A DNA stretch of 64,000 nt, from contig JALSHZ010000121.1 in the NCBI GenBank assembly GCA_026981985.1, positions 17,168 to 81,167 on the forward strand, given 5' to 3'. The translations under genes and the position numbers were made by a program. This DNA comes from Gammaproteobacteria bacterium. Lineage in GTDB: Bacteria > Pseudomonadota > Gammaproteobacteria > UWMA-0217. The notes under the pieces are model-generated. The model was not told the DNA's origin, ran no database searches, and saw nothing but the letters and a program-made list of their open reading frames with translations. Positions 4,514-51,164 of the stretch are shown one piece after another. Position 1 is the stretch's first letter. Each line of letters starts with the position of its first letter.

Positions 4514-5209
4514 ATGATTGCCGAAGCGACCGCTGATGCAATGCAATTGTTGCTGACCGGTGATCCGGCGCTGTGGGAGATCATCATGATCTCCTTGAGC
4601 GTTTCCGGGCGGGCATTGTTCTTGTGTCTGCCCGCTGGTATCGCATTGGCCTTTTTGTTGTCCTATCTGGAGTTCCCCGGTCGGCGGTTGGTGGTGGTGA
4701 TGTTCCAGACACTGATGTCGATTCCCGCCGTGGTGATTGGCCTGACGGTCTACCTTCTACTGTCTCGACATGGTCCGTTTGGTGATCTCAAGCTGCTGTT
4801 TTCCCAGACGGCGATGGTGGTTGGGCAGATGATGCTGAGCTTTCCGATTATCGTCGCCTTGGGCTATGCTGCATTCCAGGCAGCTGGGCGTAGAGGCTGG
4901 GAAACGGCGAGGACATTGGGTGCTGGCAGGATAAGGGCTTTCTTCGCGTTATTGCATGAGGTGCGTTTTGGCCTGTTCGTGGCCTTTGCTGCTGCGTTTG
5001 GGCGCATCATTTCTGAAGTTGGTGTATCGATGATGGTCGGTGGTAACATCCTTGGCTACACGCGCAACATTCCAACGGCTATCGCGCTGGAGAGCAGCAA
5101 GGGCGAGTTCGCGCAGGGCATTGCACTGGGCTTTGTGCTGATGCTGATCGCGTTGGTTTTGAATATGTCGCTGCACTTTTTCCAGGGCCGTGAGCCCGTG
5201 ATCGTCTGA
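4514..5209 (+). CDS. ABC transporter permease of the ModB/TupB/CysTW type (tungstate or molybdate-like)
   Basis: Six transmembrane helices and an EAA-loop region (WETARTLGAGRIRAFF). The stop codon is 8 bp before the ATPase gene. Confidence 0.8.
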   Translation: MIAEATADAMQLLLTGDPALWEIIMISLSVSGRALFLCLPAGIALAFLLSYLEFPGRRLVVVMFQTLMSIPAVVIGLTVYLLLSRHGPFGDLKLLFSQTAMVVGQMMLSFPIIVALGYAAFQAAGRRGWETARTLGAGRIRAFFALLHEVRFGLFVAFAAAFGRIISEVGVSMMVGGNILGYTRNIPTAIALESSKGEFAQGIALGFVLMLIALVLNMSLHFFQGREPVIV

Positions 5210-5216
5210 GCATCCA

Positions 5217-5912
5217 ATGATTCGATTTGTCGAGATTTACAAGCGCTATGGCCGTCAGGAGATACTCTCGGATGTGTCGCTGGAGATCCATCCCGGCGAG
5301 TTCACATTGATTACAGGCGCTAATGGCTCAGGCAAGACTACGCTACTGCGAATCATTGCCGGGCTCGACCGGCCCGATCGTGCCGGGGTCATGCTGGTGG
5401 GCGAGATGCGCAGCTGGCGAAAATCGCGCAAGGCGCTGCGCAAGCGCTCTGTCTATCTGCATCAGCGGCCTTATCTTTTTTCCGGTACGGTGCTGGACAA
5501 CCTGCGTTTTGCACTGTCGGTCAATCGCATCAAGGGTAGAGACCGCCGCCGGCGTCTGGAGCGGGCGATTGACAACTTCTTTCTCGACAGCCTGCTGGAT
5601 CGCGAGGCACGCTCGCTATCGGGTGGTGAACAACAGCGCCTCGCGTTGGCACGGGCTTGCCTGACCGAGCCAGAGCTGCTCCTGCTCGATGAGCCAACAG
5701 CCAATATGGATGCCGCTTCGCGCGCACAGTTTATGTCGATGCTAATCCAGTCTGGCAACCGAAATCAGGCCATCGTGTTGGTCAGTCACGATATCGTTGG
5801 GCTCGACTTCCGCTACGACCATCACTTCGATCTTGATGATGGCAGGCTGCTGGATGTTACTCGCACGAAACCAGGCGAGCGTTCCCGTGTCAGCTTGACG
5901 CTGGTCAAGTGA
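5217..5912 (+). CDS. ABC transporter ATP-binding protein. It is short, with no TOBE domain, and is TupC-like.
   Basis: Walker A (GANGSGKTTLL), ABC signature (LSGGEQQRLALARA), and Walker B (LLLDEPT). Confidence 0.85.
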   Translation: MIRFVEIYKRYGRQEILSDVSLEIHPGEFTLITGANGSGKTTLLRIIAGLDRPDRAGVMLVGEMRSWRKSRKALRKRSVYLHQRPYLFSGTVLDNLRFALSVNRIKGRDRRRRLERAIDNFFLDSLLDREARSLSGGEQQRLALARACLTEPELLLLDEPTANMDAASRAQFMSMLIQSGNRNQAIVLVSHDIVGLDFRYDHHFDLDDGRLLDVTRTKPGERSRVSLTLVK

Positions 5913-6002: not shown

Positions 6003-7274
6003 ATGACGAGCGAGGGTATCAAGCATCAGCCTTCTTGCGCTGATCCGGTCGATCTGAAAGCTCTGGATGTCGAGGACGCCAGGGCGCGCATCCTTGATCA
6101 GATCATTCCCGTCGATGGCTACGAAAAACTAGCGATTCGCTCCGCACTCCGGCGGGTTCTCGACGAAACAATCATCTCCCCCGTCAACGTCCCGTCCCAC
6201 CGCAATTCTGCAATGGATGGATTCGCTATCCGTGGCGACGAAATTCCAGCGGAAAATGAACAGGCGGAATTTACCTGCGTCGGTACCGCCTGGGCTGGCC
6301 ACCCTTTTGTTGGCGAGATAGCGGCAGGAGAGTGCATCCAGATCATGACCGGCGCGCCGCTACCCGATACCCTGGATACCGTGATCATGCAGGAGCAGGC
6401 GGAATACGATGGCAAGGTTGTCCGTATTGGCGGTAAGCATCGTGCTGGCCAAAATGTCCGCCAAGCAGGGGAGGATTTGGCCAAAGGTGGTGTCGTGTTC
6501 GAGCCAGGCCGTCGCTTGACGGCCGCCGACCTGGGTGTCATTGCATCGCTGGGTATCGGCGAGGTCGTCGTCCGACGTAAACCCGTTGTCGCATTCTTTT
6601 CCACCGGTGATGAACTGAGGTCCATTGGCGAACCCCTTGGCGAAGGCGAAATCTACGACAGCAACCGCTACACCTTGTACGGCATGCTGACGAATCTCGG
6701 CGTCGATATCCTCGACATGGGGGTCGTCGAGGACAATCCTGATGCAATGCGCGCAGCCTTCCACAGCGCCGCAGCCAACGCTGACGTGGTCATCACCAGC
6801 GGCGGGGTTTCCGTCGGTGAGGCCGACTACATCAAGCCGGTACTCGAAGAGCTGGGCGAGATCACCTTCTGGAAAATAAAAATGAAGCCGGGTCGCCCAC
6901 TGACCTTCGGTAAACTTGGTGACGCAACCTTCATGGGGTTGCCGGGAAACCCGGTGGCCGTCATGGTGACGTTTTACCAGTTTGTACTGCCAGCTTTACA
7001 GTACATGATGAGCGGGCAGCGGCCAGAACCGATGTTATTACAGGCTGTCGCAAAAACGGCGATTCGCAAGCGGCCTGGTCGTACCGAGTTTGCGCGCGGT
7101 CGATACAGTATTGATGATTCGGGCCTGCTGCACGTCGAAGTCACCGGTCAGCAAGGATCGGGTATTCTCACTTCGATGAGTTATGGCAACTGTTTTATTG
7201 TTCTTCCGCCGGAACAGGGATCAGTAGAACCTGGTGATGTCGTTACCGTCCAGCCATTTAATAGCATGATCTGA
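6003..7274 (+). CDS. moeA: Molybdopterin molybdenumtransferase MoeA
   Basis: MoeA N and C domains, with the GGVSVGEADY and GLPGNPVA motifs. Confidence 0.9.
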   Translation: MTSEGIKHQPSCADPVDLKALDVEDARARILDQIIPVDGYEKLAIRSALRRVLDETIISPVNVPSHRNSAMDGFAIRGDEIPAENEQAEFTCVGTAWAGHPFVGEIAAGECIQIMTGAPLPDTLDTVIMQEQAEYDGKVVRIGGKHRAGQNVRQAGEDLAKGGVVFEPGRRLTAADLGVIASLGIGEVVVRRKPVVAFFSTGDELRSIGEPLGEGEIYDSNRYTLYGMLTNLGVDILDMGVVEDNPDAMRAAFHSAAANADVVITSGGVSVGEADYIKPVLEELGEITFWKIKMKPGRPLTFGKLGDATFMGLPGNPVAVMVTFYQFVLPALQYMMSGQRPEPMLLQAVAKTAIRKRPGRTEFARGRYSIDDSGLLHVEVTGQQGSGILTSMSYGNCFIVLPPEQGSVEPGDVVTVQPFNSMI

Positions 7275-12380: not shown

Positions 12381-12707
12381 ATGACCGACAAAACGATCGT
12401 ATTGACGACATGGCCTGATCTGGCTGGTGCTGAAGCGTTTGCAAGGCTGCTGGTCGAAAAGCGTCTCGCAGCCTGTATCAACGTCTTGCCGGAGATGGGT
12501 TCCATCTACCAATGGCAAGGCAAGCTTGAGCAGGGTGCAGAGCATCAGTTGATCATCAAGACCACGGTGTCACGCTATGCCGATGTCGAGGCGATGATTG
12601 TCGCGCATCACCCTTATGCGTTACCCGAAATACTATGTATCCCCGTCACTGCTGGGTTTCCCGGCTACCTGAGCTGGATTGAAGAGGCAACCCATGCTGA
12701 AAAATAG
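12381..12707 (+). CDS. cutA: Divalent-cation tolerance protein CutA
   Basis: A 108 aa CutA1 fold lying immediately upstream of dsbD, as in E. coli cutA-dipZ. Confidence 0.88.
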   Translation: MTDKTIVLTTWPDLAGAEAFARLLVEKRLAACINVLPEMGSIYQWQGKLEQGAEHQLIIKTTVSRYADVEAMIVAHHPYALPEILCIPVTAGFPGYLSWIEEATHAEK

Positions 12708-15054
12708 ATTGTCACACCTGTTGCTTGCCCTGCTGTTGTTCCCCACCGTATTGCTGGCGGTGAGTGAAGACGAGTTGCTTCACGCCGAAGAAGCATTCCG
12801 GTTCAATGCGGAGGAAAAGGCGCCAGGGATTATCGAGCTGAACTGGGAGGTTGCCGATGGTTACTACCTGTATCGCGATAAGTTCAAGTTCAAGGCTGAA
12901 AAAGGGCTACAGCTGTCTGACAAGCCAGTACTGCCAAAAGGCAAGGTGAAGAAAGACCCCAATTTCGGCGATGTCGAAATCCTGCGCGGCAAGATCAGCC
13001 TCGCCGTGCCCTATCGGTTCGAGCCGGGTGCCAAAGGGCCAGCGACGCTGACGGTAGGTTATCAGGGCTGCGCCGATCTGGGGGTGTGCTACCCACCGGA
13101 GAAAAAGACCATCGTCGTCGACAAGGCTGAAGTGTCGGCAGCGGCGGAGCCGGCACAGCGCGGGTCCGTGGCCGAGGCGCTGGCGGCGGCTGCCAAGCCC
13201 AGCCCTTTCGAACGCCTGAGTCGGCTGACCGGGGGCTTGGGTGGTGACGAAGCGCAGGAGCTTTTGCCGAATGACGAGGCCTTCGCGTTCTCTGCCGAGC
13301 TGGCTTCGCCCAATATCCTCATAGCACACTGGAACATCGCGCCGGGATACCACCTCTACAAAGACAAGATCAAGGCAGCGCTGGAATCCGCTACCGGTTT
13401 GAAGCTGGGTCCTGGTGACTTCCCGCAAGGGGAGATGGAGGACGACCTCGAAGGTGGTCTCACCGAAGTCTATCGTGGTCCGCTGACCATCGAGTTTCCG
13501 GTACTGGGCCTGCAGGCGACCCCACCCGAGAAGCTGCGGCTGAAAATCCGCTACCAGGGCTGTGCCGATCAGGGGGTCTGCTATCCGCCGGTGAAAAAAA
13601 CGCTCGACTTCGATGGCGTTCAGCTAGGCTTGCTCAGTGGTGCGATTGCAGGTGCAGACACGGACAGCGTTGCGGCTGCGGCTACACCATCTCCTGAGCC
13701 TGACAGTGTCGCCACGGGCATGGTGTCAGAGCAGGATGCGATTGCCGAGCAACTGGCCTCCGGCAATATGATATTGACGCTGATCGCCTTTTTCGGCTTT
13801 GGCCTGTTGCTCTCACTGACGCCCTGCGTCTTTCCGATGATTCCGATCCTGTCGGGGATAATCGTTGGTCAGGGCGAGACCATTACCACACGCCGCTCGT
13901 TTATGCTGTCGCTGGCCTATGTACTGGCCATGGCGGCGGTCTACGCCGTCGTTGGTGTCATCGCTGCGGTGACCGGCGCAAACTTGCAAACGGCGTTTCA
14001 GAATCCCTGGGTATTGATTACCTTTGCCGGCCTCTTTGTTGCATTGGCCCTGTCGCTTTTCGGCTTTTATGAGCTGCAGATGCCCGCGGCAATTCAGAGT
14101 CGGCTGACCGATGTCAGCAACAAGCAGCGTGGTGGCTCGCTCACCGGTGCTGCCATCATGGGTGTGCTGTCGGCGCTGATCGTCGGCCCCTGTGTTACCG
14201 CGCCATTGATGGGCGCGCTTGTCTACATCAGCCAGACCGGCGATGGTGTGCTCGGTGGCGCGGCGCTGTTCTTCATGGGGCTGGGCATGGGTGTGCCATT
14301 GCTGCTGCTAGGATTGTCGGCAGGCAGTCTGCTGCCCAAAGCCGGCGTCTGGATGGATGCGGTCAAGGCAGTGTTCGGCGTGATGATGCTGGGCGTTGCA
14401 ATCTGGTTTCTGGAGCGAGTGCTGCCGTCGGCAGTAACCATGTTCCTGTGGGCTGCGTTGCTGATTCTCTCTGGCGTCTATATGGGCGCTTTCCATGGCC
14501 ATGGCAAGGTGGGTCACAAACTGCTGCCGCTGTGGAAGGGCATGGGGCTGATGCTGGTGGCATGGGGCATGTTGATTCTGATCGGTATGGCAGCCGGGAA
14601 TAGCAATCCATTGCAACCGCTGCGTGGACTGGCGCTTGGTGGTATGTCGCAGGGTGTAATGGCGGCTGGCGTGGAAACCCGGCGTGGGCTGGATTTCCAG
14701 CCCATCAAGGGGGTCGATGGGCTTGATGCTGCGCTGGCGAAAGCTGCGGCGCAAAACAAGATGGTCATGCTCGATTTTTCTGCTGAGTGGTGCATCACCT
14801 GCAAGGAGCTGGAAGAGTTCACGTTTACCGATCCTGCGGTGCATCAGGCGCTGGATGACGTCTTGTTGTTTCGCGCGGATGTCACCGCCAACGATGCCGA
14901 GGACAAGGCCTTGCTGAAACGGTTTGGCATTATCGGCCCGCCGGCAATCCTGTTCTTTACACCAGACGGCAAGGAACTCAAGGGACATCGCGTCGTGGGC
15001 TTTATGAATGCCGGTGACTTCCGTGCCCACATTCTGAATGCGAAACAGCAATGA
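12694..15054 (+). CDS. dsbD: Thiol:disulfide interchange protein DsbD
   Basis: A signal peptide, a DsbD alpha domain, a transmembrane core with the CVFPMIP motif, and a C-terminal thioredoxin domain containing WCITC. Confidence 0.92.
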   Translation: MLKNRLSHLLLALLLFPTVLLAVSEDELLHAEEAFRFNAEEKAPGIIELNWEVADGYYLYRDKFKFKAEKGLQLSDKPVLPKGKVKKDPNFGDVEILRGKISLAVPYRFEPGAKGPATLTVGYQGCADLGVCYPPEKKTIVVDKAEVSAAAEPAQRGSVAEALAAAAKPSPFERLSRLTGGLGGDEAQELLPNDEAFAFSAELASPNILIAHWNIAPGYHLYKDKIKAALESATGLKLGPGDFPQGEMEDDLEGGLTEVYRGPLTIEFPVLGLQATPPEKLRLKIRYQGCADQGVCYPPVKKTLDFDGVQLGLLSGAIAGADTDSVAAAATPSPEPDSVATGMVSEQDAIAEQLASGNMILTLIAFFGFGLLLSLTPCVFPMIPILSGIIVGQGETITTRRSFMLSLAYVLAMAAVYAVVGVIAAVTGANLQTAFQNPWVLITFAGLFVALALSLFGFYELQMPAAIQSRLTDVSNKQRGGSLTGAAIMGVLSALIVGPCVTAPLMGALVYISQTGDGVLGGAALFFMGLGMGVPLLLLGLSAGSLLPKAGVWMDAVKAVFGVMMLGVAIWFLERVLPSAVTMFLWAALLILSGVYMGAFHGHGKVGHKLLPLWKGMGLMLVAWGMLILIGMAAGNSNPLQPLRGLALGGMSQGVMAAGVETRRGLDFQPIKGVDGLDAALAKAAAQNKMVMLDFSAEWCITCKELEEFTFTDPAVHQALDDVLLFRADVTANDAEDKALLKRFGIIGPPAILFFTPDGKELKGHRVVGFMNAGDFRAHILNAKQQ

Positions 15055-39891: not shown

Positions 39892-41940
39892 ATGAATCAG
39901 CTCAGCAAAGAAACTAGCCCCTACCTTCTCCAGCATGCCGATAACCCGGTCGACTGGTATCCGTGGAACCCGGAAGCGCTGGCACTTGCCCGCAATGAGG
40001 ACAAGCCGATCCTGCTGTCGATTGGCTATTCCGCCTGCCACTGGTGTCATGTCATGGCCCACGAGTCGTTCGAGGATGCAGCAACGGCCGAACTGATGAA
40101 CCGCTATTTCGTCAACATCAAGGTCGATCGCGAGGAGCGTCCCGATCTCGACCGGATCTATCAGACGGCGCACTATCTGTTGACTCAGCGCAGCGGTGGT
40201 TGGCCGCTCACCGTGTTTCTGACGCCGGATGATCTGCTGCCATTCTACGCCGGCACCTATTTTCCGCCTGTAGCACGACACGGCCTGCCCGGATTTCGGG
40301 ATCTGCTGGTCGGTGTCGCCGATCTCTACCGCGAGCGGCACGATGAGGTGCGCCAGCAGGGCGCGGCGTTACAGCGGGCCTTGTCTCAGGCGGTCAATCA
40401 GCGTCACCCCAGTGTCGAGCTGGGGCCGCAGCTGCTGGCCAGGGCGGTTGAGGCACTCGCCGAGCGCTATGATGCCGACAATGGTGGTTTCGGCCAGGCG
40501 CCGAAGTTTCCCCATCCCACCACGCTGGCATTTTTGCTGCGTCGCTGGCTATTGTCGCGTGGCGGAGATGAGGTCGACCTGAAAGCGCTGGAAATGCTGG
40601 CCTATACGCTGAAGAAAATGGCGTTGGGTGGTGTCAACGATCAGATCGGTGGTGGTTTCTGTCGTTATTCGGTGGATGACTACTGGATGATTCCTCACTT
40701 TGAAAAGATGCTGTACGACAATGCCCAGTTGCTGCCGCTCTATGCCACCACAGCGATCACCACCGGCAGCGCTTTGTTCCGGCGTGTTGCAGCGGAAACA
40801 GGGCAGTGGGTGATGCGCGAAATGCAGTCCCCAGAAGGGGGGTATTTCTCCGCGCTGGATGCCGATAGCGAGGGAGAGGAGGGCAAGTTCTATGTCTGGA
40901 CGACCGACGAGGTAGCAGCACTGCTCAGTGAGGAGGAGTACCTCTATTTTGCACACCGCTATGGCTTGAACCGGCCGTCCAATTTTGAGGGCAAATGGTT
41001 GCCTCATGTCTATATGGAGTATGAGGTGCTGGAGAAACAGTTCTCGCGGCCGGAAAGCGAGATTCGTCAGATTATCGACATGGCCCGCAACAAACTGCTG
41101 GCAGCACGATCCGGGCGGGTCAGGCCGGGCAAGGACGAGAAAGTCCTGACTTCATGGAATGGGTTGATGATCTCCGGCATGGCGATTGCGGGGAGATTGC
41201 TGGGGCGCGAGGATTTCATCGACTCGGCGGAGCAGGCGTTGGCATTCATTCAGCGTGAGCTATGGGTTGACGGGCGTTTGCTGGCCACCAGCAAGGACGG
41301 ACATGCCCATCTGGCTGCCTATCTCGACGACTACGCCTTCCTGCTGGACGCGATCCTGGAGCTGCTGCAAGCACGCTGGAATGCGGCGCAACTGCGTTTC
41401 GCTGGCAAGCTCGCCGATGTCATGCTCAAACACTTCGAAGATCACGACAACGGTGGCTTCTTTTTCACCGCTGATGATCACGAGCGCCTGCTGGAACGGC
41501 TCAAGCCCTTCGCTGACGAGGCATTGCCAGCCGGCAATGCGGTGGCGGCCAAGGCGCTGGGCCGACTGGGCTATCTGCTGGGTGACAACCGCTATATCGA
41601 TGCATCTCAGCGTTGCATGGCGGCCGGTTCCGGGCTGGTCGCTCAGGCGCCGGTAGCACACTGCGGCATGCTGGCAGCGCTGCAAGAACAGATCGAGCCG
41701 CCCAGGATCATGGTGGTTCGAGGTGAGGGGCAGGCGCTGGAGGAGTGGGCAATGGCGCTTGCTGCGCATTCAGATCCACGCACACTCGGCTTTGCGATAC
41801 CGAATGATGCCAGTGATTTGCCGCCGGCGCTGGCGATTAAATCGGGACGTGACGAAGGCCCGGTTGCCTATCTGTGTGAAGGCATACAGTGTGCCGAACC
41901 GGTTGTTGAGCTGGCAGATTTCACGCAATTACTGGCTTGA
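39892..41940 (+). CDS. Thioredoxin-domain protein of the DUF255/YyaL family (N-terminal thioredoxin fold plus six-hairpin glycosidase-like domain)
   Basis: The CHWCH motif near the N-terminus and SPATA20-like architecture. Confidence 0.88.
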
Positions 41941-42124
41941 GTTGTGAGTGCGCGGTAGTCGATAGCTGCGGTTTTGGCAGAACATTACTCGTTCGTAATC
42001 TGTGCCGGGCTGGCTAGAAATTAATGTTCTATGTTATATACTCACTTTAATTGGTTGAAAATATTGCTTTTAAAGGTGCTGTAGCTGGTTGGTTGGCGGC
42101 GCCTTCTCACTGGGGAGTAGCGTC

Positions 42125-42565
42125 ATGAAATTTCTTGGAAGCCTGATGATCGCAGCATTTATCGTGATGATGCCGCAGTCGGCCATTAGCAAGATCAGGG
42201 TTGTCGATACCAGCAGCACCACACCGATGGACATCGTCTGGACCTCAAAGAACAGTACCGGCCAGGTTGTCGTACACCTCTATATGTATTGGGGCTTGCA
42301 GTGTCCGCATTGCCATGAGGCGATGCCGTTCATCAAGAAGATTGCGCGCAACTACCCCTGGGTGAAAGTGCATTTGCGCGAGATCAGTGAAAACCGCAAG
42401 AATCTGGTGTCGATGTACAACATGGCCGATGCGATCGGTGAGTCCAATGTAGCGATTCCGGCATTCTTCTACTGTGGTTATCTGTACACTGGCTGGGGTG
42501 ACGATGAGACCACGGGTGCATGGCTGGTGGATGAGCTGAAACAGTGCCGTGGTAATCCTATTTGA
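42125..42565 (+). CDS. Secreted thioredoxin-fold protein with a CPHC active site (DsbA-like motif)
   Basis: A signal peptide and CPHC. An AT-rich promoter region lies upstream. The gene is lower in GC. Confidence 0.65.
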   Translation: MKFLGSLMIAAFIVMMPQSAISKIRVVDTSSTTPMDIVWTSKNSTGQVVVHLYMYWGLQCPHCHEAMPFIKKIARNYPWVKVHLREISENRKNLVSMYNMADAIGESNVAIPAFFYCGYLYTGWGDDETTGAWLVDELKQCRGNPI

Positions 42566-42673
42566 CGAAACCGCCACCTCGGCGACACAAATTATGTAGA
42601 GCGTATCAGCCGTTCGGCTGATGCTTTGCACTTACGATTACGTCCTCTCCTAGCAGGTAAAAAGGGCGTATCA

Positions 42674-43702
42674 ATGAATAAGATCCTTACCGTCACCGTC
42701 AATTACAAGACAGCCGAACTCACCATCAAGTGCATTGAATCCGTTGCCCGGGAGCGTGAGCTGAATGCCCCGGGGCTGGAGATGTGTGTTGTCGACAATG
42801 ACTCGCAAGATGGCTCGGTCGAGAAAATTGCCGCGGCGGTACGGGAAAACGGCTGGTCCGATTGGGTTGAGGTGCTTCCCGCGGGTTGCAATGGCGGATT
42901 CTCCTTCGGCAACAATGTGGCGATCCGCCCTGCGCTCGCCCGGCCACGTGATCAGCAGCCTGACTTCATCTGGTTGCTCAACCCTGATTCTGAAGTCGAA
43001 CCCGGTGCGGCCCTTGAGCTGATCCGGTTCATGCAGGAGCGTCCGCGGGTGGGCATGACGACAGGGCTTTCCTATGGTTTGGATGATGAGATTCAGACCG
43101 TGGCCTATCGCCACTTCAGTCCGCTGACCGAGTTTGTTGGCATGTCACAAATTGGTGTGCTTGAACGCCTGATGCCGTTCTCGAATGTCGTGCTGCCGTT
43201 GGGTGATGAGCCCAGCCAGGCGGTCTGGCTTTCCGGCGCCTCGCTGATGATCCGTCGCGAGGTGTTCGATGATACGGGCCTGATGGATGAAGACTATTTT
43301 CTCTACTTCGAGGAAACCGATCTGTGCATCCAGGCCGGGCGTGCCGGCTGGGAGATGTGGTATGTGCCAGCCAGCCGGGTGATGCATGTCGAAGGCGCTG
43401 CGACGGGTTTCACGCTCGAAGAGGTGGCCAAGCCGCGGCGTGCGCGGTACTGGTTTGAGTCGCGGCGTCGTTTCTTCCGCAAAAACTACGGCTTGCTGGT
43501 CGCCATGCTGGCGGATCTGGGCCATCTGAGCGGATATATGCTGTGGCGTCTGCGCCGCATGCTCCAGAACAAGCCGGATCTCGACCCGCCGTTCTACTTG
43601 CGCGACTTCGTTGCCAACAGCATTTTCGTGGCAGGATTCGGTTTGGGGCGCAGCAAGCTGGCTATTCCGCAATCTCCAGAACGGCTCGCTGGCCGGGCGT
43701 AA
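42674..43702 (+). CDS. Family 2 glycosyltransferase (paralog 1 of 3)
   Basis: A GT-A fold with VVDNDSQDGS (DXD), and a conserved C-terminus YWFESRRRFF shared with the two other copies. Confidence 0.85.
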   Translation: MNKILTVTVNYKTAELTIKCIESVARERELNAPGLEMCVVDNDSQDGSVEKIAAAVRENGWSDWVEVLPAGCNGGFSFGNNVAIRPALARPRDQQPDFIWLLNPDSEVEPGAALELIRFMQERPRVGMTTGLSYGLDDEIQTVAYRHFSPLTEFVGMSQIGVLERLMPFSNVVLPLGDEPSQAVWLSGASLMIRREVFDDTGLMDEDYFLYFEETDLCIQAGRAGWEMWYVPASRVMHVEGAATGFTLEEVAKPRRARYWFESRRRFFRKNYGLLVAMLADLGHLSGYMLWRLRRMLQNKPDLDPPFYLRDFVANSIFVAGFGLGRSKLAIPQSPERLAGRA

Positions 43703-44459
43703 TGTCCTTGTCGGTGGTGAAGCTGACGCTGAGTTCAAGTAGTGCGGGGTTGCTTGCGGCCGGCGCTATCTGCTGGATCATTCCCTTGAAGCGTTCATCA
43801 CCAACAGTGACGCCGATCGTTTGCCCCACGGTGAGTTGATCGCCCTGTTGCGGCGTGATTCGCGCGATTGCCAGCAAGTGGCCACCGCGGGCAATGCGTA
43901 GTATGGGGGTGATATCGCAACGATTGCTGACCGTTTCACCGGGGTGGACATTCTGCTCGGTGATCACGCCACTGAACGGGGCGCGGATCTGGCTGTATTC
44001 GAGCTGGATTTGCGCCAGCGCCAGTTCCGCGTTGGCGCGTGCAAGGTCGGCCTGAGCGCTGTCGTAACGGGCCTGGACGTCTTCCAGTGCGGTGGTCGAC
44101 AGTACCGTGCGATCGAACAGTTCCTCGGCGTGGCGTAACTCCCGCTCGGCAATGCGGAGCTGGCTGCTGAGGCGCTGAACCTCCGCTGCGGCGCGTTTCT
44201 TCTCTGCTTGCAGCGGGCGTGGGTCCAGTGTGGCAAGCAAGGCCCGTTTCTTCACCCGATCACCAACCGAGACCTTCACGCTGGCGATACGGCCGCTCAA
44301 CGGTGTCGACAGCGTGGCGGTCTCGGCCCAGCGCAGGGTTGCCGGCAGTTCTTCGGCCGTGGCGTCCTGGCTGATCGGCGCAAGCATCACCAGGAGTATT
44401 GAAAAACAACGGCTGAATTGACGTGATGCCTTGGTGATTCGGCTGTGTGATTGTGTCAT
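43662..44459 (-). CDS. Short HlyD-family periplasmic adaptor (membrane fusion protein)
   Basis: A signal peptide, a biotinyl/lipoyl-like domain, an alpha-hairpin and a beta-barrel domain. It overlaps the TolC-family gene by 4 bp. Confidence 0.8.
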   Translation of the reverse strand: MTQSHSRITKASRQFSRCFSILLVMLAPISQDATAEELPATLRWAETATLSTPLSGRIASVKVSVGDRVKKRALLATLDPRPLQAEKKRAAAEVQRLSSQLRIAERELRHAEELFDRTVLSTTALEDVQARYDSAQADLARANAELALAQIQLEYSQIRAPFSGVITEQNVHPGETVSNRCDITPILRIARGGHLLAIARITPQQGDQLTVGQTIGVTVGDERFKGMIQQIAPAASNPALLELSVSFTTDKDITPGQRAVLEIAE

Positions 44460-45799
44460 TGCGTGGCCTCGTTTGCGGCGGCTGCATCAGGTGGTGTGAG
44501 GGCGCTCCAGCTGGGGTTGCCGGTCAGAACAACCAGTGTTTCGCGTGCCAACGCCAGCTCAAAGCGGGTTTTTTCCGCAAACTGGCGGGCATCGCTCTGT
44601 TCAACCATGGCATCGCCCAGATCGGTCTTGATTTCCAGTTCATATTCGGCGCGGCTGCGATCCAGGTAAAGTTCACGGTAGTCTTCACGGATAGTCGCCT
44701 GTTTCAGTTGTAGCTGAAGTGTCGCGATCTGCTGCAATGTCGTCAGTAGCTTTTGCCTGATTTCGTATTCGGTCTGTGTCTTTTGTGCAGTGAGGCTGCG
44801 CCGTTTGGCAAGGCGGGCACTGATGTCGGCATCGACACGTCCACCCTGATACAAGGGCACATTGATGCCGAGAATGCCGCGCAATGGCGTGCGGCTGCCA
44901 TACTCCTGGCGATATTCATGGGCTTCCAGTTGTAGATAGAGTTCTGGGTAGCGTTGCGCACGAACGGCTTTTTGCTCGTCTTGCAAGGCCAGTAGCTGCG
45001 CATTCAGGGCCTGGAGCGCCGGATTGTTGGCCAGGCTGTCGTTGAGCAGATCTTCATATTCGGGCAGCGGGCTTGTCAGCCCGGGCAGTTGGGGTGGCTC
45101 CAGAGTGGCGGAGAGCTCATCTGGACGGTTCAGTGTCAGTGCTAGCTGGGCGCGGGTCTGGCGTTGTGCCGATTCCGCACGCTGGCGCTGTAGCAACTGC
45201 TGCTGATAGGCATCCTCCAGCTTGAGCAGCTCAAGCTCCGGGATTCTCCCAAGTTCCAGTTCATCCCTCGCTCGGTCGAGACGAACATAGGCAACGGCCA
45301 TGGCTTCGTTAGCGCTAGCGGCGGCGAGGTCGGCGAGCAGGACGTTGAAGTAGTCTTGCATCACTTGCTGGCGTAGCTGTAGTCGTGTCAGGGCCAGCGT
45401 CGCCCGGCTCGCGGCGGTTTCTTTGGAAGCTGCATCAATGCGGTGGCGGGTGCGCCCAAAATCATACAGGCGCTTGTATAAGGTGATGCTCGCTCGTGAG
45501 TCGTCGCGACTGTCGTAGGGTGGGCCGGCTATTGGCTTGATACGATGTAATTCTGCGGTCAAGTCGATGCGGGTATCGTCGCTTGCTGCAACCTGTGCGG
45601 CATCCGCTTCGCGGCTTGCCGTGTCGGCTTGTGCTCCAACGAGGCGGGGGTGGTTGTCATCGATCGAGGCCAGTGCTGCCGCCAGACTGAGTGGTTCGGG
45701 CAATGTTGCGGCTGGGGTTTCCATCTCGTCGCCAGCGCTAGTGTTTTGGCACCATAGCAGGCTGAGGAGAATCAGCTGAGGCAGTAACCGCTTGCTCAT
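44456..45799 (-). CDS. TolC-family outer-membrane efflux protein
   Basis: The signal peptide MSKRLLPQLILLSLLW and two OEP repeats. The ORF could extend to 46054. Confidence 0.85.
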   Translation of the reverse strand: MSKRLLPQLILLSLLWCQNTSAGDEMETPAATLPEPLSLAAALASIDDNHPRLVGAQADTASREADAAQVAASDDTRIDLTAELHRIKPIAGPPYDSRDDSRASITLYKRLYDFGRTRHRIDAASKETAASRATLALTRLQLRQQVMQDYFNVLLADLAAASANEAMAVAYVRLDRARDELELGRIPELELLKLEDAYQQQLLQRQRAESAQRQTRAQLALTLNRPDELSATLEPPQLPGLTSPLPEYEDLLNDSLANNPALQALNAQLLALQDEQKAVRAQRYPELYLQLEAHEYRQEYGSRTPLRGILGINVPLYQGGRVDADISARLAKRRSLTAQKTQTEYEIRQKLLTTLQQIATLQLQLKQATIREDYRELYLDRSRAEYELEIKTDLGDAMVEQSDARQFAEKTRFELALARETLVVLTGNPSWSALTPPDAAAANEATQ

Positions 45800-45812
45800 G
45801 CGAGGGGGGTTC

Positions 45813-46352
45813 CTAGCGTTGTCGTTGGCTGAGCTTGAAGCGGGTAAAGCTGCCATTCTTGTAGTGGCCCTCTGCGACATAGCGGCCGAGCAACATGAAC
45901 TCCTTTGCGTCGCGACTTGCACCGATGAAACGTGCAGTCCGTTTGCCTTCGAGGTCGAAAAAGGCGATGACAGGCGTTGCTCTGACGCGGTGCTCTCTGC
46001 TGGCGAAGTCCTTCTGGGTCGTCTGTTTGCCCGCGAAATTGACCAGTTCCACATCGCCTTCGATATCGATACTGATGATGCGGAAGTGTTTGCGGTAGTA
46101 GTCCTGAACGTCGGGTTGGTTGAGCACCTCCCGTTTCATGCGGTGGCAGAACGGACAGTCGTCCATCTCGAAGAAGATCACGATGCCCTGTTTGCCTTCT
46201 TCTCGCGCTGTCTCCAACTCTTCGGAAAGGTCGCCAAAGGACTCCTGAAAGAAGTGGGTGGCAGGGTCACGGCCCGCAGCAGAAAGGCCGGGGATGGAGA
46301 GAGCGATGGCGAGTATCAGCAGAAAAAACAGCTTTGGGGTGTGTCTGTGCAT
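45813..46352 (-). CDS. Secreted thioredoxin-fold protein with a CPFC motif (SoxW/TlpA-like)
   Basis: A signal peptide and DDCPFCHRMK. It is the first gene of the TolC-family and adaptor operon. Confidence 0.7.
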   Translation of the reverse strand: MHRHTPKLFFLLILAIALSIPGLSAAGRDPATHFFQESFGDLSEELETAREEGKQGIVIFFEMDDCPFCHRMKREVLNQPDVQDYYRKHFRIISIDIEGDVELVNFAGKQTTQKDFASREHRVRATPVIAFFDLEGKRTARFIGASRDAKEFMLLGRYVAEGHYKNGSFTRFKLSQRQR

Positions 46353-46550
46353 GAATGTGGCGATGCTCCAGTGCGTTGTCGAGGCACTCAACAATACTGG
46401 ATCAAGGGGTTCGGGCGATCAAGCGACTTTTTCCCAGCCATTGCAGCGTGTTCCCTGACTGCCGGCCTGGCAACAAGGTATGACGTGGCTTGAAAAACCA
46501 CTCTCGTGGCGCCATGCTGAACAGACAATCTTCTTTTCTGCGAGACCCAC

Positions 46551-47024
46551 GTGCCCCTTCTTCTGCTCTTTATCGTTGTCCCAATCGTCGAACTCTATTT
46601 CCTCATCAAGGTTGGCAGCATCATTGGTGTTATTCCCACGATTTTGATCGTCATTGCCACAGCGGTCATTGGCACGGCGCTGCTGCGCCAGCAAGGGCTT
46701 GCAACCCTGCACCGCTATCAGCAAAGCCTGTCCAGCGGTCGCTTGCCGGCGCAGGAGATGATCGAAGGGCTGGCGCTGGTCTTTGGCGGGGCATTGCTGC
46801 TCACCCCGGGGTTTGTCACCGATGCGGTCGGATTTCTCTGTCTGATCCCGATCACCCGGCAGGCAGTGATCCGCTGGTTGTTGAAACGGGTACGCATCCG
46901 TGGGGTTTCAATGATGTCGCAGCGAAGCCGCTGGAATCATCAAAGTGATGATTTCGACGCGCCGGAGCAACCGCAGGGTGGTCGAACGATCGAAGGGGAG
47001 TTCACCCGCAAAGACCGGGATTAA
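46551..47024 (+). CDS. fxsA: FxsA family cytoplasmic-membrane protein
   Basis: MPLLLLFIVVPIVELYFLIKVG... Confidence 0.9.
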   Translation: MPLLLLFIVVPIVELYFLIKVGSIIGVIPTILIVIATAVIGTALLRQQGLATLHRYQQSLSSGRLPAQEMIEGLALVFGGALLLTPGFVTDAVGFLCLIPITRQAVIRWLLKRVRIRGVSMMSQRSRWNHQSDDFDAPEQPQGGRTIEGEFTRKDRD

Positions 47025-47149
47025 CCCGAGATCATCTCTATTTGCAATCCGGGTTCTTTCCGGTCGTCCACCGGCTCAAGACGTGGTGATGGTGCGATGC
47101 TGACGAGAACCGAACTCTCGCCAGCTGGTGAGATGGGCGGGCTTGCGGC

Positions 47150-47236
47150 TTACCAACCGCGGCGATGACCATAGAGTGCCAGCGCGCCGGCACAGCTGAC
47201 GATGATCCAGATGACGACAATGTCGTTGATGCTCAT
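47150..47236 (-). CDS. Candidate 28 aa hydrophobic small protein (MSINDIVVIWIIVSCAGALALYGHRRGW)
   Basis: An AAGGAGG ribosome-binding site lies 7 nt upstream of the ATG. It has a single transmembrane helix. It is divergent from csrA. Confidence 0.4.
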   Translation of the reverse strand: MSINDIVVIWIIVSCAGALALYGHRRGW

Positions 47237-47453
47237 GATGGGCCTCCTTGCGACTACATGATGTCGAATCAGGTGGCTATTTTCCGGGCCTTGGTGGTGA
47301 AATTGCAGTGCAGAATGCAAACAATTGTTGTCTCCGGGAGATTGTTGCCAGCGCAGCAATCCAGATGTGTTCAAGCTCACATCCTAGTGTAATCACTTGG
47401 TCTAGCATGTTTCTGGCCAAAGAAAATGCTGGAAACAGAATTTTACAATCTAC

Positions 47454-47459
47454 TATAAT
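47454..47459 (+). promoter_or_regulatory. Perfect TATAAT -10 box upstream of csrA
   Basis: TATAAT lies 58 bp upstream of the csrA ATG in an AT-rich leader. Confidence 0.4.
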
Positions 47460-47517
47460 CCAGGTCACAAAAAAAACGCGACTGCAGTTCGGTATTACGA
47501 CAAACGGGGAAAGGACG

Positions 47518-47745
47518 ATGTTGATATTGACTCGCCGGATTGGCGAAACGGTAATGATCGGAGATGATGTTTCAGTCACGATTCTGGGTGTAAAAGGCAA
47601 TCAGATACGGGTGGGCATCAATGCACCGAATGATGTCGCGGTACATCGGGAAGAGGTGTATCAGAAACTACAGGCTGAAAAGTCGGTTAAGAAACCGAGA
47701 ATGACAACAAGAAAGCCGACGATCTCTTTGGTTCGAGGCGGCTAA
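47518..47745 (+). CDS. csrA: Carbon storage regulator CsrA/RsmA family. An orphan paralog with an extended C-terminus.
   Basis: [48 protein letters not shown], with a GGAAAGGA ribosome-binding site. Confidence 0.9.
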
Positions 47746-47879
47746 GACGACTTTAGCGTCGTTAGTCCCGGGCACTACGCGATGGTGTTGCTTCAGGACA
47801 GCTTTCTGCCTGCCGCGGGGCGGTGGATGGTCTATTATTTGATCATTCCTTAATCTGGCCACGCAGGAGTGAACCACCG

Positions 47880-48158
47880 GTGATTCACGTCACGAAGCTC
47901 GTTCTCGATGTGCTCAAACCACATCAACCCAATGCACTCGATTTTTCCTGCACTGTTGCCGAGGTCGGCGCCAACTATCGTGTACAGCTCGTTGTGGTCG
48001 AGGTCGATGAGCATACCGAGACGGTACGTGTGCGGATCGAGGGTGATCACCTCGATTTCGCTGCCATCGAGAAAGCAATCGCTGGCATGGGTGGTTCGCT
48101 CCACAGTATCGACGAGGTGGATGTCTGCAACATGGCGGCTCCGCAGCTGGAGGAGTGA
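47880..48158 (+). CDS. DUF211 (COG1888) family protein
   Basis: VIHVTKLVLDVLKPH...IHSIDEV. An AGGAG ribosome-binding site lies 10 nt before GTG 47880. A longer ORF starts at 47823. Confidence 0.65.
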   Translation: MIHVTKLVLDVLKPHQPNALDFSCTVAEVGANYRVQLVVVEVDEHTETVRVRIEGDHLDFAAIEKAIAGMGGSLHSIDEVDVCNMAAPQLEE

Positions 48159-48215
48159 TGCCATGCACTCCCGTCACTATCCAAGCTGCTTCTGTTTACG
48201 GAAATTCCTGATGTG

Positions 48216-48794
48216 ATGGGCCTGAGCCGGCGGCTGGTATTCCTGCTGCGTATTTCCGAATCACACGGCATTATTCGTCGCTATTTTGTGGTCAATGGCT
48301 TTGATGGCGCATTGACGATGCTGGGGATCATCATGGGTTTCGCACTGGCGGAGCCGACCAACACCGATGTCGTCATCAGCGCCTGCCTTGGGGCGGCGAT
48401 CGCGCTTGCGGTCAGTGGCGTCAGCAGCGCCTATATCAGTGAGGTAGCCGAGCGCCGCAAACGTCTGCATGAACTGGAGCAGGCCATGATCCGTGACCTG
48501 ACGCATAGCGCCCACGGCGAAGCAGCACGGTGGATGCCGCTGCTGGTGGGGCTGGTCAATGGCATGTCGCCGTTACTGATTTCCTTGCTGATCATGTTGC
48601 CGTTGTGGCTGGCCAAGGCGGGGCTGGCGCTACCTGTGTCGCCGCTGCTGCTGGCTGTTCTGATTGCGCTGGCAATCGTTTTCCTGCTGGGCGTCTTTCT
48701 TGGCCGTATCTCGGGCATTTCCTGGCTGCGTAGTGGTTTGCAGACCATTGTGATTGCGGTGGCGACGATTTCTCTGGTCTATCTGTTCAGCTGA
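48216..48794 (+). CDS. VIT1/CCC1-family (DUF125, COG1814) membrane protein
   Basis: The N-terminal motif VVNGFDGALTMLGIIMG and about five transmembrane helices. It forms the conserved pair with the DUF211 gene. Confidence 0.7.
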   Translation: MGLSRRLVFLLRISESHGIIRRYFVVNGFDGALTMLGIIMGFALAEPTNTDVVISACLGAAIALAVSGVSSAYISEVAERRKRLHELEQAMIRDLTHSAHGEAARWMPLLVGLVNGMSPLLISLLIMLPLWLAKAGLALPVSPLLLAVLIALAIVFLLGVFLGRISGISWLRSGLQTIVIAVATISLVYLFS

Positions 48795-48863
48795 CGAGCT
48801 GCCTGGGCGTGATTCAACGGTGGTGGATTGCCGATCTGTGGCACGTTTTCTTCACGCAGGCAT

Positions 48864-48891
48864 TGACATCCAAAAACGCATCCCTATTATT
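48864..48891 (+). promoter_or_regulatory. Candidate groESL promoter (TTGACA, about 15-16 nt spacer, TATTAT)
   Basis: The -35 box TTGACA lies at 48864-48869 and a -10-like box at 48885-48890. Confidence 0.45.
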
Positions 48892-48916
48892 GGCACTCAT
48901 CCGGGGTGAGTGCTAG
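48890..48916 (+). promoter_or_regulatory. CIRCE element (HrcA operator) TTGGCACTC-N9-GAGTGCTAG
   Basis: It matches the CIRCE consensus TTAGCACTC-N9-GAGTGCTAA at 16 of 18 positions. It lies about 90 bp upstream of groES. Confidence 0.75.
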
Positions 48917-49008
48917 CAGAGGCGTGTCGCCTGCTGCCACGTGGCGCTGATCACCTGACCGGAACTCGAATCAATTCAACTGGACTCAAATCAAAGGAGA
49001 TTTGTCGA

Positions 49009-50965
<1,957 letters not shown>

Positions 50966-50995
50966 GCCCTTTTCCAACCAGGAAAAGCGTCAAGG

Positions 50996-51029
50996 AAAGC
51001 CCCGCCTCGTGCGGGGCTTTCCGCGTTTT
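50996..51029 (+). terminator. Rho-independent terminator after groEL
   Basis: aagccccgc-ctcgt-gcggggctt followed by a T run. Confidence 0.75.
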
Positions 51030-51164
51030 GGCATTGCCAAGATGATGAACATCAGGGGTGAAAAATGCCTCCCCCTTCCATTTTGTCTACTGCTCGACAC
51101 CCATACCCCCCCAGCCTTTGGTAGCATCAGGGAACCTTCCATGATCCGTACTCAGGAGTAGCGC

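Follow-up and report, generated by a model that had tools for sequence, protein, structure and literature searches.

An off-site csrA-family gene in a conserved four-gene cassette between fxsA and groES of an uncultured gammaproteobacterial clade

Here we describe a csrA-family gene and the genes that accompany it in a 64,000-nucleotide stretch of DNA from an uncultured gammaproteobacterium (the window; assembly GCA_026981985.1, contig JALSHZ010000121.1, positions 17,168 to 81,167). The gene belongs to a group of four, referred to below as the cassette, which comprises small28 (a 28-amino-acid peptide gene on the minus strand), csrA, a DUF211 gene and a gene for a VIT1/CCC1-superfamily membrane protein (VIT). 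To its left lies fxsA (46551-47024, plus strand; Pfam FxsA, 131 bits), and to its right, also on the plus strand, lie groES (49009-49299) and groEL (49316-50965), with 1984 bp between the fxsA stop and the groES start. An initial annotation, made from the sequence alone, had named fxsA, csrA, DUF211, VIT and groES, and each was recovered by profile match at the position given there. It had also pointed to an AT-rich region before csrA, and the GC content of that region (47237-47517) is indeed 45.9%, compared with 57.4% for the window. No second csrA, and no alaS or lysC, was found within the 64 kb, the remainder of which is ordinary core chromosome (including asmA, prlC, dsbD, accC, purH, tamA and tamB).

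Other carriers of the cassette were reached through exact and near matches to the window CsrA protein. In addition to records of the same organism (L001 and L002), these are the metagenome-assembled genomes (MAGs) GCA_054018095.1 (L003, CsrA 97% identical) and GCA_054022275.1 (L004, 79% identical over the CsrA core region), a set of short contigs (L087-L092, CsrA 70% identical) and a contig from a hydrothermal-vent metagenome (L093). The order small28 (minus strand), csrA, DUF211, VIT, groES, groEL is the same in all five lineages, groES being the right neighbour in each, and fxsA is the upstream gene in all three with an identifiable left flank (the window, L003 and L004). In L004, an additional gene for a DsbA-like thioredoxin-fold protein of 216 amino acids (5002-5652) lies between fxsA and small28, so that the cassette varies more at its left edge than at its right. 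The left neighbour in L088 is a partial open reading frame without identification. All four cassette genes are under purifying selection.

The csrA gene (47518-47745, plus strand) encodes a protein of 75 amino acids and lies outside the usual csrA site, as the initial annotation had proposed. Relatives were collected by a scan of one genome per species, from which the nearest 80 loci were examined; full-length identity to the best match is no more than 65%, from which we judge that the window's species and genus are not in the collection. Among these loci, csrA follows alaS or lysC in 78 (lysC intervening in 72 of these), and in none of the 80 is it near fxsA, groES, DUF211 or VIT. The housekeeping csrA of Gammaproteobacteria is marked by a place after alaS (or alaS-lysC) and before tRNA-Ser, whereas the window gene sits between fxsA and groES.

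A second departure from the housekeeping gene is the rate at which the core of the protein changes. For comparison, 81 alaS-linked csrA cores spanning several orders were used, among which the mean non-synonymous divergence (pN) is 0.064; between the cassette clade and these canonical cores it averages 0.174, with a minimum of 0.11. The alaS-linked CsrA cores are 97-99% identical between genomes whose LysC proteins are at least 85% identical, and still about 90% identical at LysC identities of 60-70%. Cassette csrA does not share this extreme conservation: between different lineages, 41-50 of 55 core residues are identical (75-91%), while GroEL and GroES of the same lineages are 97-99% and 96-100% identical to those of the window. 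The window and L003 form a near-identical pair, with one core residue different. The ratio of non-synonymous to synonymous substitution rates (dN/dS) of csrA is 0.10-0.18, which still shows purifying selection, and the clade CsrAs are each other's nearest neighbours (monophyly).

By profile the protein is an ordinary member of its family. It scores 87.4 bits against Pfam CsrA (PF02599; cut-off 27), 109.7 against the NCBIfam equivalog PRK01712 (cut-off 73) and 90.7 against TIGR00202 (cut-off 70.1), and covers positions 1-52 of the 53 in the Pfam model without insertion. The RNA-binding residues defined by alanine-scanning work, in strand 1 and where strand 5 meets the helix, are L2, L4, R6, R7, V40, V42, R44 and I47 (E. 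coli numbering). Six of these (L2, L4, R6, R7, V42 and R44) are invariant across CsrA alignments of 23 and 98 homologues; the window protein also has V40, and carries V in place of the usual I at position 47. R44 is described as essential for RNA binding (PMC7366521), and the window protein would be expected, from its residues, to bind RNA. The core (residues 1-57) is canonical and is 70-84% identical to canonical cores. An AlphaFold monomer (mean predicted local distance difference test score, pLDDT, 71) places strands at residues 11-35 and then a helix at 44-57, so that in this model the protein is a CsrA-family member of the ordinary strand-then-helix order.

Beyond the core lies the extended C-terminus that the initial annotation had remarked on. 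Residues 59-75 have pLDDT below 50 and are predicted to be disordered. Within this tail, the motif KPxISLVxG (residues 66-74, DNA 47713-47739) is common to all clade variants, and outside it the clade tails vary in length and sequence. In a recent preprint (bioRxiv 10.64898/2026.09.16.752055), the disordered tails of Rsm proteins are reported to be in some cases essential and specific to the paralog.

The gene small28 (47150-47236, minus strand) is divergent from csrA and was overlooked in the initial annotation. It encodes the 28-amino-acid peptide MSINDIVVIWIIVSCAGALALYGHRRGW, with one predicted hydrophobic helix and a basic C-terminus, behind an AGGAGG ribosome-binding site. Amino-acid identity is 86-96% across the five lineages, dN/dS is about 0.05, and the variable alignment columns number 6, 2 and 19 at codon positions 1, 2 and 3, a pattern from which we conclude that small28 is a real coding gene. 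The 87-bp gene is nevertheless missing from all gene calls returned for the cassette contigs. It has no match in Pfam, NCBIfam, PADLOC or PHROG, and no homologues were found upstream of DUF211 operons elsewhere. The putative small28 leader contains 4-6 GGA motifs where 2.3-3.2 are expected (P 0.07-0.2); since this excess is not significant, the idea of the leader as a GGA-rich sponge or CsrA target is not supported. No GGA-dense stretch was found anywhere in the window.

Coding regions of the lineages differ by 20-25%, yet blocks within the 281 bp between small28 and csrA are almost unchanged across them. These blocks are GCAGTGCAGAATGCAAACAATTGTTGTCTCC, GTGTAATCCCTTGGTCTAGCAT, a promoter block (TTTACAAT...TATAAT...GTCACAAAA) and the csrA ribosome-binding region GGGGAAAGGA. 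The first (47305-47335), which contains the palindrome AACAATTGTT (47320-47329), is near-invariant in the five lineages while neighbouring non-coding columns vary, and is a candidate regulator-binding site in this divergent control region. At 47387-47408 the five-lineage alignment shows the conserved non-coding block GTGTAATC(A/C)CTTGGTCTAGCAT. The initial annotation had assigned csrA its own promoter on the strength of a perfect TATAAT; a sigma-70-like candidate, TGGAAA-N18-TATAAT, is present at 47430-47459 on the plus strand (10 of 12 consensus positions matched), its TATAAT (47454-47459) invariant in the five lineages and the flanking sequences conserved. The ribosome-binding region (47506-47515, plus strand) is kept in four of the five lineages, with a variant in L093, and includes a GGA motif, so that autoregulation, by analogy with E. 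coli csrA, is possible. A structured RNA in the control region or the small28 leader was considered and rejected on folding (z = -0.9) and on an unfavourable covariation term; no Rfam family scored above threshold, whether in 46900-49100 or in the related loci, and an Rfam scan of the window found no Rsm/Csr small RNA (sRNA). The conserved blocks are best read as a promoter and protein-binding DNA serving the divergent gene pair.

Downstream of csrA lie the DUF211 gene (COG1888; 47880-48158, plus strand, GTG start, 92 amino acids) and the VIT gene (48213-48794, plus strand, starting with GTG at 48213 or ATG at 48216, 193 amino acids). DUF211 scores 87.5 bits against Pfam PF02680 (cut-off 22.1) and matches the solved archaeal proteins 2RAQ (E 2.6e-16), 3BPD (6.9e-15) and 2X3D (2.4e-07); the solved ferredoxin-fold proteins of the family are MTH889, 3BPD and SSO6206. 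VIT resembles the TIGR00267 type, at 84 bits (below the cut-off of 156.95), scores 42 bits against Pfam VIT1 (PF01988; cut-off 28.1) with its best stretch only at profile positions 93-211, and has no solved relative detectable by sequence. The dN/dS of DUF211 is 0.30 in the comparison with L087 and 0.04-0.08 in the other three comparisons, and that of VIT is 0.03-0.06. The start codon of DUF211 lies within an almost perfect palindrome, GTGAACCACCGGTGATTCAC (47869-47888), which is not kept in L004 or L093.

The description of this pair as archaeal-type holds only in a historical sense, for close homologues are common in Proteobacteria: over 1800 proteins of the collection are related to DUF211, and many of these are bacterial and 60-73% identical (Chromatiaceae, Rhodospirillales, Mariprofundaceae and Shewanella). 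A metagenome scan with DUF211 added one distant locus (L095, 44% identity) without adjoining csrA or VIT. Four DUF211-VIT contexts were inspected, from Shewanella frigidimarina, a Chromatiaceae MAG and two metagenome contigs. In all four, DUF211 and VIT are followed by a gene for a P-type ATPase of about 880 amino acids; the best NCBIfam match of the ATPase is the PMR1-type Ca/Mn pump model (type IIA), below the model cut-off. The S. frigidimarina proteins are 62% (DUF211) and 64% (VIT) identical to those of the window, in the same order and with the same tight spacing, but the clade cassette has no P-type ATPase gene and has csrA and small28 upstream instead. Neither csrA nor small28 occurs in the four ATPase contexts, whose neighbourhoods differ, so the adjacency of csrA and DUF211 is particular to the window's clade. 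At L099 (5001-8481), L100, L102 and L112, where the genes of the DUF211-VIT-ATPase series overlap or abut, DUF211 is preceded by 350-600 bp of non-coding DNA with no Rfam match, in which a leader or regulator site so far unrecognised may lie; no riboswitch was found upstream of DUF211 operons.

Transport of Fe2+ or Mn2+ is the activity associated with the VIT1/CCC1 family. COG1888 has been linked to ArsR-type regulators in Thermococcales (PMC9425974). This linkage, together with the ATPase-operon context, points to divalent-metal handling, and the DUF211-VIT pair probably handles Mn, Fe or Ca.

The gap occupied by the cassette is an old one. We take fxsA to adjoin groES immediately in Pseudomonas, which is the arrangement from which the initial annotation had argued for an insertion. 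In E. coli K-12 the gap is filled by yjeH (order fxsA, yjeH, groS, groL), so the neighbourhood of fxsA and groES is old and open to lineage-specific cargo. Downstream of the cassette, the groES control region (48863-48916, plus strand) is intact and invariant, with a promoter-like TTGACA-N16-TATTAT (48863-48890) and an inverted repeat, TTGGCACTC-N9-GAGTGCTAG (48890-48916), that is the same in all five lineages. The repeat resembles CIRCE, whose consensus is TTAGCACTC-N9-GAGTGCTAA (PMC7464140). Its presence suggests HrcA-type repression of groESL. As this is not the pattern of Pseudomonas or E. coli, the CIRCE-like repeat is a hint that the organism is not 'Pseudomonas-like'.

Side observations were made at both ends of this neighbourhood. 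After groEL (50966-51030), two AGGA motifs are followed by a strong GC-rich terminator hairpin; the corresponding spot of L003 weakly matches RsmY at its 3' end (E 0.75). The feature is most likely just the groEL terminator. Upstream of fxsA (39892-46394) is a cluster of thiol-disulfide genes (DsbH-like and thioredoxin-like) together with an outer-membrane-factor/RND-adaptor pair, and dsbD lies further upstream (12679-15054).

The history of the cassette differs from that of its flanks. Between the window and L004, DNA identity is 89-97% in the flanks and only 73-84% in the cassette (47146-48794); between the window and L003, it is 86-94% in the flanks and 96-99% in the cassette, and synonymous divergence is discordant between cassette and flanks likewise. 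It follows from this discordance that homologous exchange has replaced the cassette among relatives, all of which carry it at one and the same site. Such exchange is a form of horizontal movement and not the arrival of a foreign island. Of the horizontal acquisition proposed in the initial annotation, therefore, the part that stands is exchange between related strains, seen as a mosaic against the flanks, and the part left unsupported is a simple recent insertion. Within the clade, the cassette seems to be in circulation as two divergent alleles. In L003, an insertion of about 159 bp (6332-6490) between csrA and DUF211, absent from the window and L004, has terminal inverted repeats (GTAACT..TCAGC and GCTGAGCAGTTAC) and an 8-bp duplication (GATCATTC), and resembles a miniature transposable element.

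A simple recent insertion is also hard to reconcile with the site and the surroundings of the cassette, which lies directly before groES in every one of the five lineages examined. Neither an integrase nor a transposase gene accompanies it, its flanks show no repeats, direct or inverted, the surroundings of csrA are free of genes for conjugation, integration or phage functions, and PADLOC matched no defence system. Base composition gives little more to such an insertion. The GC content at third codon positions (GC3) is 0.50 for csrA, below the mean of 0.68 +/- 0.04 for 17 long genes of the window, but is host-like in the other three cassette genes (small28 0.72, DUF211 0.63, VIT 0.72). Canonical csrA genes are themselves lower in GC3 than their lysC neighbours, by 0.05-0.07 on average (standard deviation 0.077) and by up to 0.21; the low value of the window gene falls within the range that canonical csrA genes show against lysC, so that composition is not decisive on, and cannot serve as proof of, a foreign origin. 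An origin of the window CsrA on a plasmid or phage was rejected, as no CsrA among 72,556 plasmids and 50,697 phage records is closer than the chromosomal ones.

We consider it probable that the four genes form a cassette that is fixed, in one uncultured clade of gammaproteobacteria, in the old gap between fxsA and groES, and that its csrA is an accessory paralog beside a housekeeping copy. Rate and position are the evidence for the paralog, the fast and divergent evolution of the core being what favours it. On the other side of the balance, the non-synonymous excess over canonical pairs is only about two-fold when synonymous divergence is comparably saturated, and no second csrA of the same genome was found, in a one-genome-per-species scan from which the species is absent and in two further CsrA proteins (P0038 and P0044) that proved to come from other samples. 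The wider picture also has points that tell against it: GGA motifs are not significantly enriched in the small28 leader, no Rsm/Csr sRNA occurs in the window, the AlphaFold CsrA model is a monomer of moderate confidence, and the basis for metal handling is gene context.

In this reading the cassette CsrA is a functional protein which, like the rest of its family, most likely forms a homodimer (interleaved in the family fold), recognises GGA motifs in the leaders of mRNAs and so changes their translation. As an accessory paralog, it would be kept alongside a housekeeping csrA at alaS-lysC. The substitutions in its core and the conserved tail motif would then specify targets or partners of its own. 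The 28-residue membrane peptide would be made divergently from the control region shared with csrA, and the DUF211-VIT pair would probably handle a divalent metal.

Among the alternatives, the one that retains most weight, as a possibility to be kept in mind though not a likely one, is that this is the sole csrA of the lineage, a housekeeping gene relocated from alaS-lysC to the fxsA-groES gap and subject to altered constraint thereafter. Its position is fixed in the whole clade, the protein passes the equivalog model with all RNA-binding residues kept, and neither the 64-kb window nor P0038 and P0044 supplies a second copy. An only global regulator, however, would be expected to be as conserved as the alaS-linked CsrA, and that of the window is several-fold faster; loss of the alaS-linked copy would be unusual, given that 78 of the 80 nearest relatives keep it, and extra CsrA copies are common (PMC13443453).

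It is doubtful that CsrA is a dedicated local regulator, forming one functional module with the genes beside it and controlling translation of small28, of DUF211-VIT or both, or of groESL. The four genes are inherited together and exchanged as one unit, GGA occurs in the ribosome-binding sites of small28 (CAAGGAGG), DUF211 (CAGGAG) and csrA, and the small28 leader has several GGA motifs. But every Shine-Dalgarno sequence contains GGA, and the leader count is not significant; no conserved RNA structure is present, DUF211-VIT operons elsewhere manage without csrA and small28, and adjacency within one clade in which all synteny is conserved is weak evidence of a functional link. Regulation of small28, DUF211-VIT or groESL by CsrA is accordingly a matter of speculation. 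A more elaborate version, in which the cassette is a self-contained post-transcriptional module swapped as a unit, with CsrA controlled or recruited through KPxISLVxG and tied to small28 and DUF211-VIT, is unlikely; were it true, CsrA control through a protein partner, for which FliW and CesT have so far been the main examples, would gain a further case.

It is very unlikely that the cassette came in recently as a foreign island or a mobile element with its csrA, in the manner of integrative and conjugative elements (ICEs), plasmids and phages. The low GC3 of csrA, the separate history of the cassette, the patchy occurrence of DUF211-VIT across proteobacterial classes (at 60-73% identity) and the frequency of CsrA-like genes on plasmids and phages would suit such an arrival, but the cassette occupies the same site before groES across five lineages with saturated synonymous divergence, lacks the marks of mobility, is host-like in GC3 in its other three genes and has no CsrA relative among the plasmid and phage records searched that is closer than the chromosomal ones.

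In kind, the window gene adds one more paralog to the CsrA family, or at the least a csrA away from its usual site, within a cassette particular to the lineage, and multiple CsrA paralogs are documented (PMC13443453). It is most like RsmE and RsmI of Pseudomonas fluorescens, P. protegens and P. putida, which are also small CsrA-family proteins with a conserved core and RNA-binding residues, encoded away from alaS-lysC-rsmA, more divergent than the housekeeping copy and ending in a paralog-specific disordered C-terminal tail. It differs from them in its KPxISLVxG motif and its setting (fxsA/groES, small28 and DUF211-VIT), which are specific to the clade, and no Rsm-type sRNA was found near the gene within the 64 kb of the window. 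CsrT and the CsrA homologues of ICEs, plasmids and phages likewise have csrA outside the usual site with its own promoter, in a locus exchanged between strains, but the window csrA is fixed at a chromosomal housekeeping site without conjugation, integration or phage genes.

The initial annotation had suggested an RsmN- or RsmF-like protein. RsmN/RsmF of Pseudomonas aeruginosa is also a CsrA-family paralog at a non-canonical locus; it has an extra internal α-helix, a rearranged topology and low identity to RsmA, and is 24.5% identical to Bacillus subtilis CsrA (PMC13443453). The window protein, with its gap-free canonical Pfam match, its ordinary strand-helix order and its 70-84% identity to canonical cores, shows no internal helix in the model, so this label is unsupported.

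Since additional copies of CsrA are known to retune regulation, a further one is in itself no surprise. The points of interest lie instead in the fast-evolving core, the conserved tail motif, the unannotated membrane peptide and the contextual lead for DUF211. The DUF211 family has three solved structures but, to our knowledge, no known function, and a functional lead comes from the finding that in bacteria the DUF211-VIT pair usually opens an operon that continues with a type IIA P-type ATPase. The cassette also reveals a conserved 28-amino-acid membrane-peptide gene, of a kind overlooked by gene callers. In CsrA itself, KPxISLVxG within an otherwise disordered tail provides a defined motif for protein-partner tests and fits recent evidence that Rsm tails matter, and the gene as a whole is a natural case of a CsrA core evolving several-fold faster than the housekeeping gene with its RNA-binding residues kept.

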